Below are positions 8,774 through 19,123 of a stretch of DNA of 31,821 bases, piece after piece (positions within the stretch are counted from its first letter, which is position 1; each line of letters opens with the position of its first letter). A program made the position numbers and the translations under genes. The notes beneath the pieces are model-generated. The model ran no database searches. It was given only the letters and a program-made list of their open reading frames with translations, and was not told the origin of the DNA. This DNA is from a virus (lineage: Duplodnaviria > Caudoviricetes). The stretch lies in the IMG/VR virus record IMGVR_UViG_3300006735_006550, positions 1 to 31,821 of that record; one strand, 5' to 3'.

Positions 8774-10216
8774 ATGTTTGAAGATTATTCGACATATAGT
8801 TATCAAGATTCAGATAATATACCTAACAACATAGATGTTATAATAGTTGGAAGTGGATTAATAGGTTCATTTCTTTCTGCAATACTATCAAAACAAGGAC
8901 TAAGGGTGTTGGTCGTGGATAGTACACCACATCCAAAGTTTTCTGTAGGTGAATCAATGATACCCTATCTCACTGCAGTTTGGAATGGTTTGGTAAAGTA
9001 TTATAATGTGGATTTATTATCAACTGATAAAATATTCAAGGATTTGGCAAGTCGTGTCGGAGTCAAAGAAAATTTTGGTTATGTTTATCATGAAGAGGGT
9101 AAAAAATCAAATCCAAAAGAAATGTTTCAACACGTCAACCCAAGTCGTTCTGAAATGCATCTATATCGACAAGACGTAGATTCTTACGTTGTAAATGCCG
9201 CAATCAAATATGGTTCTAAATTTTTATTTAACACAAAAGTAACTGATGTGAAATCAGATGAAGAAGTTCGAGTTACACTAAGTGATGGTTCAGAAATAAG
9301 ATGTCAATACATAATAGATGCAGTAGGGAGTAACTCACCATTAGCGAAGATATTCGATTTAAGAGATACAATACCCAAAGTAAAAACTAATTCATCTACT
9401 TGTTATACTCATATGATAGATGTTGAACCTTTTGATAATGTCATTGAATCTGAGTTCAAGACTAAATTTCATCACGGAACACTGCATCACATAGTTGAGG
9501 GTGGTTGGTTATGGGTGATTCCATTTAATAATACACCAGAGTCTACAAATCCGATTGTAAGTGTAGGATTTCAATGTAGTAAAGTTCCATTTCGTAGAAA
9601 CTATCCAAATAAGGTTATTGATTTAATCAAATCATTACCTGATGTTAGGGAACAATTTAAGAATGCAAAAGTAGTTAGGCCTTGGGTGACTGAGCCAAGA
9701 ATACAATTCTCATCAAAATCTTGTACTGGCAATAGGTGGAGTATTCTTCCACATTCGTATGGATTCATAGACCCGTTATATTCTCGTGGTTTGTGTACTG
9801 CATTTGATGGAATAAAGGCATTAATACCAAAAGTGTTACAGGCCTTCAATAACAATGATTTTTCAGTAGAACAATTCAAACCATTAGAAGATTTATATCG
9901 TAAGTTATTGAAACACAATGATGATTTAGTATATGGTTCATATCTTTCATTTAATCATTATGAGTTATGGAGAAATTGGTATTCTATGTGGAATTTGTCA
10001 ACTCGACTCGGTGAAGGCCCTACAATGAACTCATTACAGATAGGTGATTTTGATAATTTTTTCAAAAATGACTTTAAGGGTTTGATGGGACGACATGACG
10101 ATAGAATACAAGATGCAATATCAGTTATGTATGAGGTTAAGAATGGAAGTTTTCCATTAGAACAAGGAAGTGAAAGATTAGAGAATATAGTAAAAGAATG
10201 TTGGGAGATGTCTTAA
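8774..10216 (+). CDS. Flavin-dependent halogenase, PrnC-like
   Basis: GSGLIG FAD motif, HPKFSVGES, HLYRQDVD, the halogenase signature GWLWVIPF (WxWxIP) and FIDPLYSRG. Confidence 0.85.
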   Translation: MFEDYSTYSYQDSDNIPNNIDVIIVGSGLIGSFLSAILSKQGLRVLVVDSTPHPKFSVGESMIPYLTAVWNGLVKYYNVDLLSTDKIFKDLASRVGVKENFGYVYHEEGKKSNPKEMFQHVNPSRSEMHLYRQDVDSYVVNAAIKYGSKFLFNTKVTDVKSDEEVRVTLSDGSEIRCQYIIDAVGSNSPLAKIFDLRDTIPKVKTNSSTCYTHMIDVEPFDNVIESEFKTKFHHGTLHHIVEGGWLWVIPFNNTPESTNPIVSVGFQCSKVPFRRNYPNKVIDLIKSLPDVREQFKNAKVVRPWVTEPRIQFSSKSCTGNRWSILPHSYGFIDPLYSRGLCTAFDGIKALIPKVLQAFNNNDFSVEQFKPLEDLYRKLLKHNDDLVYGSYLSFNHYELWRNWYSMWNLSTRLGEGPTMNSLQIGDFDNFFKNDFKGLMGRHDDRIQDAISVMYEVKNGSFPLEQGSERLENIVKECWEMS

Positions 10217-10233
10217 AAAAGTGAAAAAAAGGC

Positions 10234-10263
10234 TTGACTTGTATTAGCTTTTATTCGTATACT
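10234..10263 (+). promoter_or_regulatory. Sigma70-type promoter TTGACT-18-TATACT
   Basis: A-tract UP element, GCTTGACT, TATACT, and ATG 5 nt downstream. Confidence 0.75.
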
Positions 10264-10288
10264 TAGATATGAAAAATAAAGGAAATAT

Positions 10289-10444
10289 ATGAGTTATATA
10301 TTAGTTTCAGATGAATGTGACACTATAGAGGTGGTTGGGGAAGACCGATACGGTGATGTGTATGAAACCTATGAACAAGCTATAGAGGATATGGATGAAG
10401 ACGGTGAATTAATTGAAACAAAGTTATTTAGGAAATATGGGTAA
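10289..10444 (+). CDS. Small acidic hypothetical protein (51 aa)
   Basis: Not in the ORF track. AAAGGA SD; MSYILVSDECDTIEVV...; TAATG overlap with the next ORF. Confidence 0.6.
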   Translation: MSYILVSDECDTIEVVGEDRYGDVYETYEQAIEDMDEDGELIETKLFRKYG

Positions 10445-10590
10445 TGAAGTATAGAAATACAGAAAAAATAGAATTAGATGAATATACAAGTGGTGGATTT
10501 TTAACATTAGATTGGTTAGATGAAGATAAGATGGATGATAAGATTTATAAAAACTTAAAAAAAGTGAAAAAAAGTGAAAAAAAGGCTTGA
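10444..10590 (+). CDS. Small hypothetical protein (48 aa)
   Basis: Coupled via TAATG; ends in the GCTTGA of the next promoter. Confidence 0.5.
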   Translation: MKYRNTEKIELDEYTSGGFLTLDWLDEDKMDDKIYKNLKKVKKSEKKA

Positions 10591-10616
10591 CTTGTATAGT
10601 ATTTTAGTTGTATATT
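10587..10616 (+). promoter_or_regulatory. Sigma70-type promoter TTGACT-18-TATATT driving the candidate ncRNA
   Basis: Same promoter family; followed by no credible + strand ORF for about 580 nt. Confidence 0.75.
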
Positions 10617-10621
10617 AGGAT

Positions 10622-11124
10622 ATAAGATTTGATGATTTAATCGTGGTTTTGTCTTTTCAACGATAATTAGAAAAGATAGTGGGTTTTCGGTGACTACTTA
10701 TTTGGAACCGAGGCCAAGTTATTTGAAAATTTGAGTGGTGAGAAAGCAGAAGTAATAATGGGTAACTCCCTGTGATGGAAAGTGACGACTTTCGAACAGA
10801 TTAACCGAAAGGACACTAATAGTGTTTCGAGTTCGACATCATATAACCCGTCAATTCCTAATTAAAGGATGAAGAGATTTAGCGGTCTCGTAAATGTTTA
10901 TCGTTGACCTGTGGAGTAAGCCACTCAAAAGATTTAGAGTAGTGGATAAACACCACGAACCTTAGAGAGATAATATCAAACGCGGGGGAGTGAGGACTTC
11001 CCCACTACTCAAAGATTTAAAGGTTGATGGTGGAGATGAAGTCTGGATAATACGGAAATAAGCCGTAGGGACAATAGGTCTGAAATATAGCCCAAGTAGT
11101 AGTCTCCCTTGATACCAAAGTTTT
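10622..11124 (+). ncRNA. Candidate large ornate structured ncRNA (~500 nt), family unrecognised
   Basis: Dedicated promoter, higher GC than the flanks, no + strand ORF of 60 aa or more, and many complementary segments: 10641-47/10952-58, 10650-58/10670-78, 10682-91/10707-15, 10730-38/10921-29, 10758-63/10846-51, 10771-77/10837-43, 10778-83/10788-93, 10937-45/11002-10, 10958-63/11020-25, 11032-37/11102-07, 11051-55/11063-67. Confidence 0.7.
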
Positions 11125-11127
11125 AAA

Positions 11128-11181
11128 TGTGGTGAGGTTTTTTTATTCATTATTTTTCTCTTCATTGTTTTCCTCACCACA
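11128..11181 (+). other. Perfect 10-bp hairpin with a 34-nt pyrimidine-rich loop (terminator-like or antisense sRNA)
   Basis: TGTGGTGAGG (11128-37) pairs with CCTCACCACA (11172-81). Confidence 0.65.
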
Positions 11182-11204
11182 AAAGTTTTATTATAGGAAA
11201 TGTT

Positions 11205-11390
11205 ATGAAAAGTAAAATAGATTCTGTTATCATTGATATGATATTAGACCATTATAATTTAAAGTCGGCTCAAGGTAAGCCACAAATTCTAACATCAAAT
11301 GAATTTGACGAGATAGTAAAAAAGGCAAGTGAAATTTATTTCAAAGATGTAATGTTAAAAACACCGAAAGGAACAGAGGGTTCAGCATGA
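11205..11390 (+). CDS. Hypothetical protein
   Basis: 61 aa, AGGA SD, ATGA overlap with the next gene. Confidence 0.6.
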   Translation: MKSKIDSVIIDMILDHYNLKSAQGKPQILTSNEFDEIVKKASEIYFKDVMLKTPKGTEGSA

Positions 11391-12697
11391 GATTACCTAA
11401 AATATTACAATGTACAGTAGACATTTTTCATAAAATGTTTCCTGAAGATAAGGTTGTTCGTTGTAAGAAATTCAATCGTAGAAGTTGTTGGGAGATATTA
11501 GATATCAAGAGATGGTTTTCGTCTATCTTGAAGGGTGCTAATATAAATCCATTGATTTATATTGATATTGATAGTTGTATGGTGTATTGTGATGAAAAAG
11601 GAAAAGAAGAGGATTATCAGTATTTTAAACATTACAAAGATGATGGATATGATTACATAACTCTTGAGGGTGGTAATAGACACGATAGTACCCATTTATT
11701 TTGGAATGACAAGAAAAAGAATAGGGAAAATAAACACATAAATTATTGTGTTATCAAAAGTGTAGATAGAGAAACGATGCACGATTTATATTGTAGAGTT
11801 GCTTATGGTAAAGCACCAAATAGACAAGAACAACGAACAGGTATCTATGGTGTTGTTTCAGATTTGGTTAGAAAAACATCAGAAAAACTATCTCACGTAT
11901 GGGGAAAAGTTAAGGGTATTAATGTAGAAAGAATGCAAGATGATGAGATGGTTGCAACCATTATGTTATATGTCACAAAAGGTGGTACGTTTGGTAAAAG
12001 TGAAGGCGGTAATAAAGATGATAACCTTGATACTATGTATAGAAATAATACTTGGTCAAAGGGTAAATTCAACTATATGGTGGGTGAACTTAAAAAGATT
12101 TTTGATTCAATAATAGACTATGATAATATAACAAAAAAACTTGAAAAATCATTTTTATACTTCTTAACAATTCTACTTAACACTTTACATACGAAATACA
12201 ACATAGAGGATTATGATGAATTCGTAAAAGAGTTATATGAGATATGGATTACTAAGTGGAATGACGACACAATAGTTCATCAGAGAAAAAATCAACCATT
12301 GTCATTCTCTGGTATGATGAGTGGTATGGCAACTTATTTGGAACAAGTTGAAAAGTTAGAGAGTATTATCAATGAGGATATCATACCTAAATTAGAGGAA
12401 GATAAAATTATAACACCACGTAATGAAGAAAAATTTACTTACCTACATAGAAAACAATATATCAATAATCACAAATTTGAGAAAAATGATAAGTGGTATG
12501 TTAAGATTAGGTCAAACAATGATGAAGGAACTTTGTTAGCAAATACGCCAGTTTTTAAAGAGGTGTTGTTATCAGAGGCTTACTCAGCAAAGTGTGAACT
12601 CGACCATATTGAACCAAAGACATTGGGTGGAAAAACAACGTTAGAAAACGCCGAGTTGACCACGAAAGAATATAATAGAAAGAAAAGTGATAAGTAG
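11387..12697 (+). CDS. DUF262 (ParB/GmrS-like) domain plus C-terminal HNH nuclease, GmrSD-like
   Basis: FNRRSCW....RWFSSILKG and ITLEGGNR resemble the DUF262 (F/Y)QR..W and DGQQR motifs. The C-terminal DHIEPKTLGGKTTLENAE....YNRKKSD is an HNH motif. Confidence 0.7.
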   Translation: MRLPKILQCTVDIFHKMFPEDKVVRCKKFNRRSCWEILDIKRWFSSILKGANINPLIYIDIDSCMVYCDEKGKEEDYQYFKHYKDDGYDYITLEGGNRHDSTHLFWNDKKKNRENKHINYCVIKSVDRETMHDLYCRVAYGKAPNRQEQRTGIYGVVSDLVRKTSEKLSHVWGKVKGINVERMQDDEMVATIMLYVTKGGTFGKSEGGNKDDNLDTMYRNNTWSKGKFNYMVGELKKIFDSIIDYDNITKKLEKSFLYFLTILLNTLHTKYNIEDYDEFVKELYEIWITKWNDDTIVHQRKNQPLSFSGMMSGMATYLEQVEKLESIINEDIIPKLEEDKIITPRNEEKFTYLHRKQYINNHKFEKNDKWYVKIRSNNDEGTLLANTPVFKEVLLSEAYSAKCELDHIEPKTLGGKTTLENAELTTKEYNRKKSDK

Positions 12698-14431: not shown

Positions 14432-15046
14432 ATGTCGTATAAAGTAGGTCAAAACAACATGGGCCGTCCCAAAATACTATTAAAAAAACGTGAAATTGAG
14501 TATGCAATCTCTGTTACGCAGAGCATGCGAGAGGCGGCCTCATATTGTAAAGTCTCTTATAACACGTTTCGTAAACAAACACGTGAGTATGGGTTATGGG
14601 ATCCCCAATCAAATAAAGGCCGTAAGCTCGGTAGTAGAGGTAAAAATAAATTTATACACTCTATACTACGTGGTGATATGATTAGTAACTATCGTGAGAC
14701 CACTTTACTGAAAAAGGCCATAGAAGAGGGATATCTTGAGTGTGCTTGTGGTAATTGTGGAGCTGATTTCTCTCACTTTACACCACCTATGCTACCGCCA
14801 TTGGTGTTGGATTTCCTCGATACTGATAATAAGAATGGTTCTCAAGACAATTTAAGGGCTTTATGTCTGAATTGTGTGTATGAATTAAAACACCATAGTG
14901 ATAAAGCATGGTATAGACATAGAGATAAACCCATAGTGGAGATACTTGATACTACTGAACCACCCACCGATACAATAAATCCCATTGAGGAACCCGCCCT
15001 TGAGTATATTCCATTCGAACAATTCCAAAAATCTTTGGAAAATTAA
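14432..15046 (+). CDS. HTH-like N-terminus plus Zn-binding degenerate HNH domain protein
   Basis: SMREAASYCKVSYNTFRK is HTH-like. CGNCG...LVLDFLDTDNKNGSQDNLRALCLNC follows the HNH scaffold but lacks the catalytic His residues. The start may be ATG 14459. Confidence 0.7.
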   Translation: MSYKVGQNNMGRPKILLKKREIEYAISVTQSMREAASYCKVSYNTFRKQTREYGLWDPQSNKGRKLGSRGKNKFIHSILRGDMISNYRETTLLKKAIEEGYLECACGNCGADFSHFTPPMLPPLVLDFLDTDNKNGSQDNLRALCLNCVYELKHHSDKAWYRHRDKPIVEILDTTEPPTDTINPIEEPALEYIPFEQFQKSLEN

Positions 15047-15055
15047 AGAAAAAGC

Positions 15056-15085
15056 TTGACTTATATATAGTTTTTTTCGTAAATT
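15056..15085 (+). promoter_or_regulatory. Sigma70-type promoter TTGACT-18-TAAATT firing into non-coding DNA
   Basis: Promoter-family motif; only a 9-codon ORF follows (15097-15126). Confidence 0.6.
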
Positions 15086-15122
15086 ACCATAGGAGAATGC
15101 CCTTGAATACCCCCCTTTGCTG

Positions 15123-15170
15123 TTGAGACTCAGTATCAATAAGGGTGTTGTTAATGAGACTGAGACTCAA
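15123..15170. repeat. Two imperfect 17-bp palindromes (TTGAGACT-N-AGTCTCAA-like), 31 bp apart
   Basis: TTGAGACTCAGTATCAA at 15123-15139 and ATGAGACTGAGACTCAA at 15154-15170, both followed by TAAG. Confidence 0.65.
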
Positions 15171-15414
15171 TAAGCCCCATAATCATACTATACCACTTAG
15201 GATTCACTACTCAAGATGGGGGGCTGGGGCAACTCGAAGGTGAAAACCGTGGGCGGTGAGCTAAAAAATATTTTGCGTCAAATCATTAACCTGCCTGGTA
15301 TACACACCACTGCAACACTCCTTCTATAATATCAATACACGAACCAGGCACACTCCATACGGAATACCCACAGCACCCCCCACGTAGCACTAAACCGTGA
15401 ATCATAAAAATGTA

Positions 15415-15500
15415 TGACAATATGTCACAGCCCTGGTTCATGCGCTCATCACGACAAAAATAACCTATATAGCCACTTAATAACATCTTATGACGTGTCA
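15415..15500. repeat. TGAC..GTCA palindromes
   Basis: TGACA-ATA-TGTCA at 15415-15427 and TGAC-GT-GTCA at 15491-15500, both continuing as TGTCACA. Confidence 0.5.
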
Positions 15501-15584
15501 CAAAGCTCGGATTCCACCATAGTTACACTTTATTATTCCACTATCTATATAGTTATTCATAATACTTAAATCAAAGGAGCTTAA

Positions 15585-15662
15585 ATGATTATCTATATAT
15601 TATCTATCTTTACTTTATATTGCTGGATTAAGGGTATTCTCGGTATTATCTCTAATGAGTAA
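15585..15662 (+). CDS. Single-TM micro-protein (25 aa)
   Basis: AAAGGAG SD; MIIYILSIFTLYCWIKGILGIISNE. Confidence 0.5.
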   Translation: MIIYILSIFTLYCWIKGILGIISNE

Positions 15663-15743
15663 AAAAACTTTGTATTTAACATTATTTAATTTATATTTAT
15701 TATCGTTATAACACATCACTATTACATCATAAGGCCAGATTAT

Positions 15744-15854
15744 ATGAATTCATTCTTATTAAACACACTTTATTGGATGATATCGTTATTCGTTATTTAC
15801 CAATTCAACGTCTCACTACATAAAGATTATCACAACCACCACGATACTAAATGA
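15744..15854 (+). CDS. Small membrane protein with His-rich tail (36 aa)
   Basis: MNSFLLNTLYWMISLFVIYQFNVSLHKDYHNHHDTK; ATGA overlap with the carbamoyltransferase. Confidence 0.45.
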   Translation: MNSFLLNTLYWMISLFVIYQFNVSLHKDYHNHHDTK

Positions 15855-18797: not shown

Positions 18798-18869
18798 GGC
18801 CCGTTCGTCTAGTGGTTAGGACTCAGGATTTTCATTCCTGCAACAGGAGTTCGATTCTCCTACGGGCTA
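18798..18869 (+). tRNA. tRNA-Glu(TTC)
   Basis: Acceptor GGCCCGT/ACGGGCT, anticodon arm CAGGA-TTTTCAT-TCCTG, T-loop TTCGATT; CCA not encoded. Confidence 0.95.
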
Positions 18870-18881
18870 CAAAAAAAGTGC

Positions 18882-18911
18882 TTGACACATATGTATAAAA
18901 TGTAGTATATT
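18882..18911 (+). promoter_or_regulatory. Sigma70-type promoter TTGACA-18-TATATT
   Basis: Promoter-family motif upstream of tRNA-Ala and tRNA-Thr. Confidence 0.7.
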
Positions 18912-18948
18912 CTGTTTAAAGACTTGTGTCGTGGTTGACACGAAGTAT

Positions 18949-19021
18949 GGGGCTGTAGTTCAGTTGGGAGAACGCCTCCCTTGCACGGAGGAGGTCGCTG
19001 GTTCGAGTCCAGTCAGCTCCA
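18949..19021 (+). tRNA. tRNA-Ala(TGC)
   Basis: GGGGCTG/CAGCTCC acceptor with G3:U70, CCTCC-CTTGCAC-GGAGG anticodon arm, TTCGAGT T-loop. Confidence 0.96.
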
Positions 19022-19026
19022 CAAAC

Positions 19027-19099
19027 GCCAGAGTAGCTCAGTTGGTAGAGCAAGTGATTTGTAATCACTAGGTCGTAGGTTCGAATCCTATCTCTGGCT
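19027..19099 (+). tRNA. tRNA-Thr(TGT)
   Basis: GCCAGAG/CTCTGGC acceptor, AGTGA-TTTGTAA-TCACT anticodon arm, TTCGAAT T-loop. Confidence 0.96.
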
Positions 19100-19123
19100 C
19101 AAGAATTTGATAAGGAAATTCAA

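Follow-up and report, generated by a model that had tools for sequence, protein, structure and literature searches.

The phage RNA encoded at the locus described here is real and uncatalogued in Rfam, but instead of a new giant it consists of small RNAs in a reorderable cassette. The locus lies in a 31,821-nt stretch of tailed-virus DNA (positions 1 to 31,821 of IMG/VR record IMGVR_UViG_3300006735_006550; hereafter the window). It is almost certainly a row of six RNA modules that fold separately behind a promoter: M1a, M1b, M2, M3, M4, and M5 (Table 1). This architecture is supported by the modular make-up itself, by reordering, deletion, and insertion of modules among relatives, by covariation in M1, M3, and M4, by the identity of M1 with a part of tmRNA, and by the occurrence of M2 in RNA libraries. 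No module matches a catalogued RNA family as a whole, and the largest single unit is M2 (~195 nt). On balance we lean towards a wider reading, in which a shuffled cassette would be transcribed as one early precursor, cut at its linkers, and release trans-acting candidate decoys.

A sequence-only reading of the same DNA had proposed a single ornate RNA of ~500 nt of the GOLLD/ROOL kind. Its case for a structured, Rfam-uncatalogued non-coding phage RNA on the + strand with its own promoter is supported; the single molecule is contradicted by relatives which carry the pieces apart, reordered, and with insertions.

Table 1. Features of the RNA cassette and its flanks (positions in the window)
Feature	Position	Strand	Description
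Promoter TTGACT-18-TATATT, sigma70-type	10587..10616	+	A-rich tract upstream; promoters of this type also stand before related arrays
M1a, H-type pseudoknot, first copy	10641..10677	+	S1 UCGUGG/CAACGA with one G.A mismatch; S2 GUCUUUU/AAAAGAU
M1b, H-type pseudoknot, second copy	10678..10711	+	S1 AGUGG/CUACU; S2 UCGGU/ACCGA beside tandem GA
Linker ending AAAAUUU	10712..10732	+	Joined directly to M3 in L149 and L163
M2, multi-junction RNA, ~195 nt	10733..10926	+	Closing stem GAGUGGU/GCCACUC; nested GCAG/CUGU, AUGGGU/ACCCGU, UGUGAUG/CAUCAUA
Linker AAAAGAUUUA, predicted cut site, insertion point	10927..10936	+	Extra module here in L073 and L084; fits RN/WUU
M3, tRNA-sized RNA, 75 nt	10937..11011	+	Closing stem of 9 bp; AUAAACACCAC and GAUAAUAUC conserved in the interior
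Linker AAGAUUUAAAGG, predicted cut site	11012..11023	+	Comparable A-rich linker 3' of M3 in 39 of 45 contexts
M4, multi-helix junction RNA, ~90 nt	11024..11112	+	UGAUG and UUGA flank a 7-bp closing stem; internal loop GAA/AGUA; two hairpins; invariant UGAAA
M5, 10-bp stem around 34-nt U-rich loop, 52 nt	11128..11181	+	Beyond the range of the sequence-only reading
61-aa ORF and 436-aa protein	11205..12697	+	Downstream genes; relatives of the 436-aa protein carry an HNH domain

The locus and its setting

The window is ~17% complete according to CheckV, which puts the full genome near 190 kb. Its gene content (sugar-modification genes, CobS/CobT-like genes, a PC4-family protein, and three tRNAs at 18798-19100, outside the RNA cassette) is the make-up of a large T4-like phage. 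RNA sequencing runs containing a stretch of the cassette are labelled marine, and loci with one shared window motif adjoin a gene that was read by eye as a tail sheath.

The consensus promoter of the earlier reading was confirmed, and promoters are repeated in the window at 10233, 27283, 27416, and 29788. At the last three of these siblings an ATG stands 5 nt past TATATT, where the cassette promoter reads ATA, as had been noted; these three likely head leaderless mRNAs. Transcription of the cassette probably starts at ~10622. No + strand ORF within 10622-11124 reaches 25 aa, in agreement with the earlier claim, and a 28-aa + strand ORF (11129-11215) begins past 11124. The noncoding stretch extends to 11181, beyond the end set previously; M5 had been missed. 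The ORF-free gap at the cassette (614 nt) is the second largest on the + strand of the window, and the GC content of the region is 0.39 versus 0.33 for the window. The largest such gap (15046-15851, 804 nt) contains a promoter-like site at 15055 and short ORFs only. A 72-aa minus-strand ORF (10962-11180) is disfavoured, since the promoter, the G-U-compatible changes, and the module shuffling are all on the + strand.

The upstream neighbour (8774-10216) is a 480-aa FAD-dependent halogenase-like gene in a region rich in sugar-modifying genes. The downstream genes are probably outside the RNA system. For the 436-aa protein (11387-12697) 41 relatives were found; many of them have an HNH domain (PF13395) at the C-terminus, and a source names two of the relatives McrA-like. 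Elsewhere in the window, a hairpin (GTGTCGTGGTTGACAC, 18914-18946) lies between a promoter and a tRNA-Ala/tRNA-Thr pair; relatives insert M3 inside such a pair.

Rfam gave no match for the region at the gathering score or with a meaningful E-value. Models of group I/II introns, RNase P RNA, small ribozymes, and riboswitches did not match, and the locus interrupts no gene. The earlier reading had likewise not recognised the sequence as tmRNA, RNase P RNA, or a self-splicing intron; no tRNA or tmRNA was found at the locus.

Folding of the whole region

The nine motif pairs of the sequence-only reading all lie at the coordinates given for them, and long perfect helices are enriched. Three of at least 9 bp were found versus 0.46 expected (10 of 1000 shuffles reach this), and 14 of at least 7 bp versus 6.8 expected (9 of 1000); at 8 bp or more the observed number was reached by 103 of 1000 shuffles, and at 6 bp or more by 216. 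The folding energy of the whole 503 nt is modest against shuffles (z -1.61 on the + strand, -1.87 on the - strand), and because the values are similar, folding energy alone cannot choose the strand. The MFE and centroid folds of the 503 nt as a single molecule conflict with the homologue evidence and were rejected.

Two proposed helices cross module borders. TCGTGGT/ACCACGA has a pairing probability of 0.0 and a perfect upstream partner in just 6 of the 40 contexts with enough flank; the strand that had been paired with 10952 has a local partner inside M1a. For AACCTT/AAGGTT the partner is present in 12 of 45 contexts. The proposed long-range pseudoknot or switch was dropped because neither helix is conserved: with TCGTGGT/ACCACGA unsupported, the crossing vanishes. 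Covariation is found where the modules are (within M1, M3, and M4) and is missing for the two cross-module helices; the proposed helices of M2 contain no compensatory pair.

Tandem pseudoknots of a tmRNA type

The M1 pattern scan covered 119 of ~140 matching viral stretches. Among the matches listed there are 101 distinct instances of the pseudoknot, 95 of them with an S2 of at least 4 bp. The outer S1 pair of these 95 is G-C in 40, U-A in 19, C-G in 13, A-U in 6, G-U in 1, and unpaired in 16; it is standard in 79 and occurs in four Watson-Crick types. The covariation score is 0.529 versus 0.124 (0/500), with 84 cells changed on both sides, in 40 equal-length rows that were hand-chosen from the 95 instances; this choice inflates the paired percentage, and the search pattern had fixed the loops. 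The M1a form occurs in several relatives with a varied S2. Tandem pseudoknots of the M1 type follow each other 34-42 nt apart without a linker, and the repeat is 34-36 nt in 22 of 38 distinct pairs.

The M1 motif is the same as the last pseudoknot (pk4 type) of tmRNA genes on related viral contigs. Among 121 loci with the M1 pattern, 15 have it at the last-pseudoknot position of a tmRNA, 65 belong to a second array type, 37 have other contexts, and 4 show the pattern only. Rfam confirms tmRNA for all three of the loci in the first group that were submitted. The resemblance to tmRNA (RF00023) is thus to its pseudoknot 4; M1a and M1b differ in being free-standing and tandem, with no tRNA-like domain or tag reading frame at the locus. 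In GTDB the motif was matched twice, once in a tmRNA like the viral ones and once in a phage-type array, both in phage-looking contexts, and no host tmRNA with the motif was found in that scan.

Viral tmRNA genes with the M1 pseudoknot as pk4 are found at L180:418-761, L185:1928-2336, L227:1929-2334, and in L290, where the tag region is seemingly unusually long with repeated YA-type endings. In the second array type (L166, L170, and 63 further loci) another pseudoknot-like element comes after the M1 pseudoknot; the array in L170 faces the end of a tail sheath-like gene.

The ornate module M2

M2 holds four of the helices proposed earlier. Its further features are tetraloop hairpins, a stem-loop of variable length near 10813-10828, and a candidate pseudoknot, ACUCC (10765)/GGAGU (10913), which is invariant across copies. 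Its folding energy stands out from shuffles (z -2.35, 4 of 200). The alignment consists of five close sequences only, with four one-sided changes between Watson-Crick and G-U pairs, which fit the + strand, and one terminal pair lost. No compensatory pair was found in the proposed helices among these five sequences; the sole both-sided change falls in an MFE helix that is broken in two of the five. In two relatives one loop is lengthened by an insertion of 16 nt, and an RNA contig carries 20 inserted nt at that point.

Near-identical contigs of 151-165 nt within 10730-10921 were found in all four RNA runs compared (two studies, marine libraries). These runs were selected by the M2-bearing sequence itself, and as contigs, with DNA a possible source, they speak for presence only and not for ends, strand, or level. 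No RNA contig covers M1, M3, M4, M5, or the flanking genes (9900-11700), which is not evidence of absence, since short RNAs are lost and contigs filtered.

Searches for distant homologues of M2 with two gapped patterns in IMG/VR recovered just two near-identical contigs and chance matches in coding sequence. An M2 22-mer had no match in GTDB, sub-domain searches of the collected loci gave nothing new, and BLAST of the region, M1, M2, and M3 against GenBank phages found nothing above chance. The manA RNA (RF01745) is ~195 nt long, occurs in marine T4-like phages, and has been proposed to be cis-regulatory (PMC2864571). It resembles M2 in size and lies downstream of the same pseudoknot arrays. 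M2 differs from it in helix order and does not score with the manA model at E-values up to 10.

The smaller modules M3, M4, and M5

The closing stem of M3 is 100% paired in 30 distinct sequences, four of its nine pairs vary at both positions, and an inner pair switches type as well; the search pattern fixed part of the interior and not the outer seven stem pairs, so the paired percentages lean upward. The covariation score is 0.123 versus 0.051 (0/500) and the folding z is -3.5. Searching 100 sources with a model built from these sequences brought up a second subtype, in L213 (42 bits) and L257 (26 bits), that keeps the central segment. M3 does not appear to be a tRNA, as no cloverleaf with T-arm and anticodon arm was found at the locus. 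A T-arm reading of its 3' half is favoured by single-sequence folding and not by the alignment. CAC/GUG in M3 has one pair broken in 10 of 30 sequences.

For M4, pairing holds in 99 of 105 cells of the closing stem and in 45 of 45 of the inner hairpin, with pair types switched in both. The alignment has 15 distinct sequences, with three loci unparsed and one mis-anchored row retained. The GAA/AGUA internal loop is one that we take to be loop-E-like. The folding energy of M4 is not above shuffles (z -0.18), and its pattern gave no match in IMG/VR despite near-identical contigs there, which marks the pattern as faulty or too strict.

M5 folds far better than shuffles (z -5.48, 0 of 200). It was aligned in four close sequences besides the window and lies directly 3' of M3 in L149 and L163; a variant with a different stem was seen by eye in L028. 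The locus yields three covariation-backed motifs (the pseudoknot, M3, and M4) and two candidates (M2 and M5) outside Rfam.

Shuffling of modules among relatives

A scan with the 9-bp stem gave 34 loci, of which 30 are chance matches and four are homologous; L039 and L044 are chance matches too. Two of the four are near-identical to the window over the whole region; the other two share the promoter and only ~90 nt around 10932-11020. A metagenome scan with the inner pattern of the M3 block covered 120 of ~130 matching stretches. At that stage 164 loci had been collected, 67 with the M3 block (with repeats between scans), which reduce to 45 distinct contexts among the matches listed.

The element immediately 5' of M3 in these 45 contexts is variable. 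It is a pseudoknot in 7, the tRNA-like T1 in 6, T2 in 4, module G in 4, and M2 in 3, two of these last being the near-identical copies of the window locus. The promoter and M4 each precede M3 in 3, modules A and F and tRNA-Ala each in 2, and H in 1; the remainder are a low-stringency tRNA-Ser call (1), other elements (4), and contig edges (3). M4 is found downstream of M3 in 16 of the 45.

Individual loci illustrate the rearrangements. L149 and L163 read promoter-M1a-M1b-M3-M5, with M2 and M4 missing cleanly at the linkers. L073 and L084 have an additional ~75-nt module between M2 and M3. M4 immediately precedes M3 in L100, L136, and L152, and M3 stands alone right behind the promoter in L060, L146, and L157. 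In L129 and L139 it is found between tRNA-Ala and tRNA-Thr (both confirmed by Rfam) with gaps of 1 and 4 nt, a spacing at which tRNA maturation would free M3. Since the order, presence, and neighbours of the parts vary, a single ornate RNA could not persist. The natural deletions and reorderings also fix the ends of the modules, so each can be made and tested singly.

The pool contains at least eight further uncatalogued modules (in L028, L063, L065, L068, L078, L086, L100, and L149); it includes leader pseudoknots A and B, the elements F, G, H, and I, and T1 and T2, which have T-arms. Other neighbours in related arrays are tRNAs and the Rfam RNA manA, which lies downstream of pseudoknot arrays at L182:819-1019, L165:808-1010, and L239:618-798. 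In these three loci another conserved uncatalogued element of ~200 nt lies before manA, and a gp32-type-looking gene comes after it. Acidic ORFs of ~60 aa ending in GEA-like residues follow the arrays at L062:1161-1340 (-) and 13 other loci. This family accounts for 14 of 22 distinct first ORFs and has no PHROG or atlas name; the 61-aa ORF of the window is not homologous to it.

Probable transcription and cutting, and a possible role

It is reasonably likely that the cassette would be expressed as one transcript from 10622 that folds module by module and is cut by RNase E and RNase P. Starting at ~10622 from the early-type promoter, which has no start codon, the host polymerase would produce one precursor in which each module presumably folds as it emerges. 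Host enzymes may then cut at the A-rich AAAGAUUU linkers, with RNase E predicted to act at AAAG/AUUU; where a module abuts a tRNA, release would be by RNase P and 3' trimming. RN/WUU is the reported RNase E motif (PMC5222698). AA[AG]AUUU occurs 4 times in the 564 nt of the cassette versus 29 times in the other 31,257 nt, and AAGAUUU is found 17 times elsewhere in the window. Some joints (pseudoknot to pseudoknot, T1 to M3) are of 1-6 nt, which is short for an endonuclease site.

Predicted pairing depends on how much of the transcript is present. The closing stem of M2 has a probability of 0.96 when folded only to 10935, and that of M3 0.72 within 10930-11125. In the full precursor (10622-11185) at equilibrium the values are 0.05 for the M2 stem, 0.01 for M3, and 0.05 for M5, and 0.61 for AACCTT/AAGGTT. 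The cross-module mispairing is probably predicted because the closing stems begin with similar sequence, and given the 0.96 for M2, co-transcriptional folding with cutting would yield the modular state.

With no ORF and no fixed neighbour gene, the products would act in trans. Pieces of the translation apparatus abound among the modules (the tmRNA pseudoknot, tRNA-sized stems, T-arm modules), which favours mimics occupying host proteins. The released RNAs may serve as mimics or decoys for host proteins that normally bind tRNA or tmRNA; possible partners are ribosomal protein S1, tRNA-cutting defence nucleases, and other host RNA-binding proteins. S1 has been reported to bind the tmRNA pseudoknot ring, PK2 most strongly (PMC3968760), and a tmRNA pseudoknot used alone offers a specific testable partner. 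Gains and losses of modules fall at the A-rich linkers and may arise by recombination there. We put forward this decoy or counter-defence role, together with shuffling by recombination at shared linkers, tentatively, as something rather short of an even bet. The broadest version is more doubtful: that a large marine phage clade keeps an RNA-only effector arsenal, an early cassette whose structured RNAs come from a shared pool of at least a dozen, are swapped at common linkers, and include free-standing tmRNA pieces. Each RNA would then titrate its own host protein of translation or defence, and M2 would represent a new ornate and possibly catalytic class of ~195 nt.

Alternative explanations

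The transcript could instead stay whole, as a beads-on-a-string scaffold or sponge with swappable domains. The very short joints and the tandem pseudoknots without a linker would suit this, yet M3 also occurs between two tRNA genes and alone behind a promoter, and the larger modules each have their own closing stem and an A-rich 3' linker, so a whole-transcript scaffold is unlikely.

Catalytic modules are an improbable explanation in which M2 would be a new ribozyme or M3 and M4 self-cleaving processors of the array. M2 does have a nested multi-junction core with a possible pseudoknot, and M3 a long invariant inner segment. HDV-like ribozymes of phages lie beside tRNAs, and M3 adjoins tRNAs too. 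However, no Rfam ribozyme model scores, the conserved A-rich linkers suit a host enzyme, and the 5' and 3' ends of M3 pair together, unlike the HDV fold.

It is quite improbable that the tandem pseudoknots mimic type III antitoxins (pseudo-ToxI) and so suppress ToxN-like abortive infection. H-type repeats of 34-36 nt equal the ToxI unit length (PMC5086642), phage RNA mimicry of a host RNA has a precedent (PMC3475682), and the AA/AU cut by ToxN is contained in the linkers. ToxN binding is described as needing single-stranded tails around a core pseudoknot of 25 nt with 4-bp stems (PMC8860590), whereas here most copies are 0-2 nt apart with no such tails, the stems are longer, the copies are unlike each other, and there is no toxin gene. 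Rfam has no ToxI match, and the same motif is part of tmRNA.

We give equally little credence to the array being a long cis-regulatory leader of the downstream gene. The small acidic ORF family recurs behind arrays and manA is a proposed cis-regulator, but the arrays in L068 and L116 stop 12 nt before the next promoter, the one in L129 sits among tRNAs, the downstream ORF of the window is unrelated to the acidic family, and the last module varies.

The single ~500-nt RNA with long-range helices and a pseudoknot or switch draws on a contiguous ORF-free region with one promoter and on equilibrium folding that favours cross-module pairing, but it is largely refuted by L149, L163, L100, and L129, as well as by the non-conserved cross-module partners, and is very improbable.

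Comparison with known phage RNAs

T4 RNAC and RNAD are located in a tRNA cluster and undergo tRNA-type processing. They are small phage non-tRNA RNAs (species 1 and 2) whose function is unknown (PMC9697503), and by description they are, together with manA, the closest in kind to the cassette. In L129 and L139, M3 appears to belong to the same transcription unit as tRNA genes, which is not so at the window locus. The cassette differs in having six modules, its own promoter, and no tRNA at the locus, and in drawing on a pool of at least 12 module types that are reordered between phages and have no Rfam match. GOLLD and ROOL are phage-encoded structured RNAs of unknown function often found near tRNA islands (bioRxiv 10.1101/2024.12.08.627333). 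They are single RNAs with a conserved long-range architecture, in contrast to the reorderable row described here, for which there was no covariance-model match to either and no conserved covarying long-range helix.

A literature search, with most subscription papers outside its scope, found no description of shuffled RNA cassettes, and the available parts of two preprints (10.64898/2026.10.21.760802 and 10.64898/2026.09.15.751765) contain no such account. The accessible supplementary tables of Fremin et al. 2023 (PMC10690425) list none of the motifs or contig ids; single modules may be among the 8,495 IMG/VR candidates of that study.

The small RNAs beside phage tRNAs have long lacked an explained function, and examples of RNA-based counter-defence are few. 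The locus also calls for caution, as a long structured intergenic stretch of a phage can be a row of small RNAs and not one giant. At one related locus (L167, ~2100-2700) the array is followed by repeats that are presumably Y RNA-stem-like and by an ORF start that we take to resemble Ro60/TROVE.
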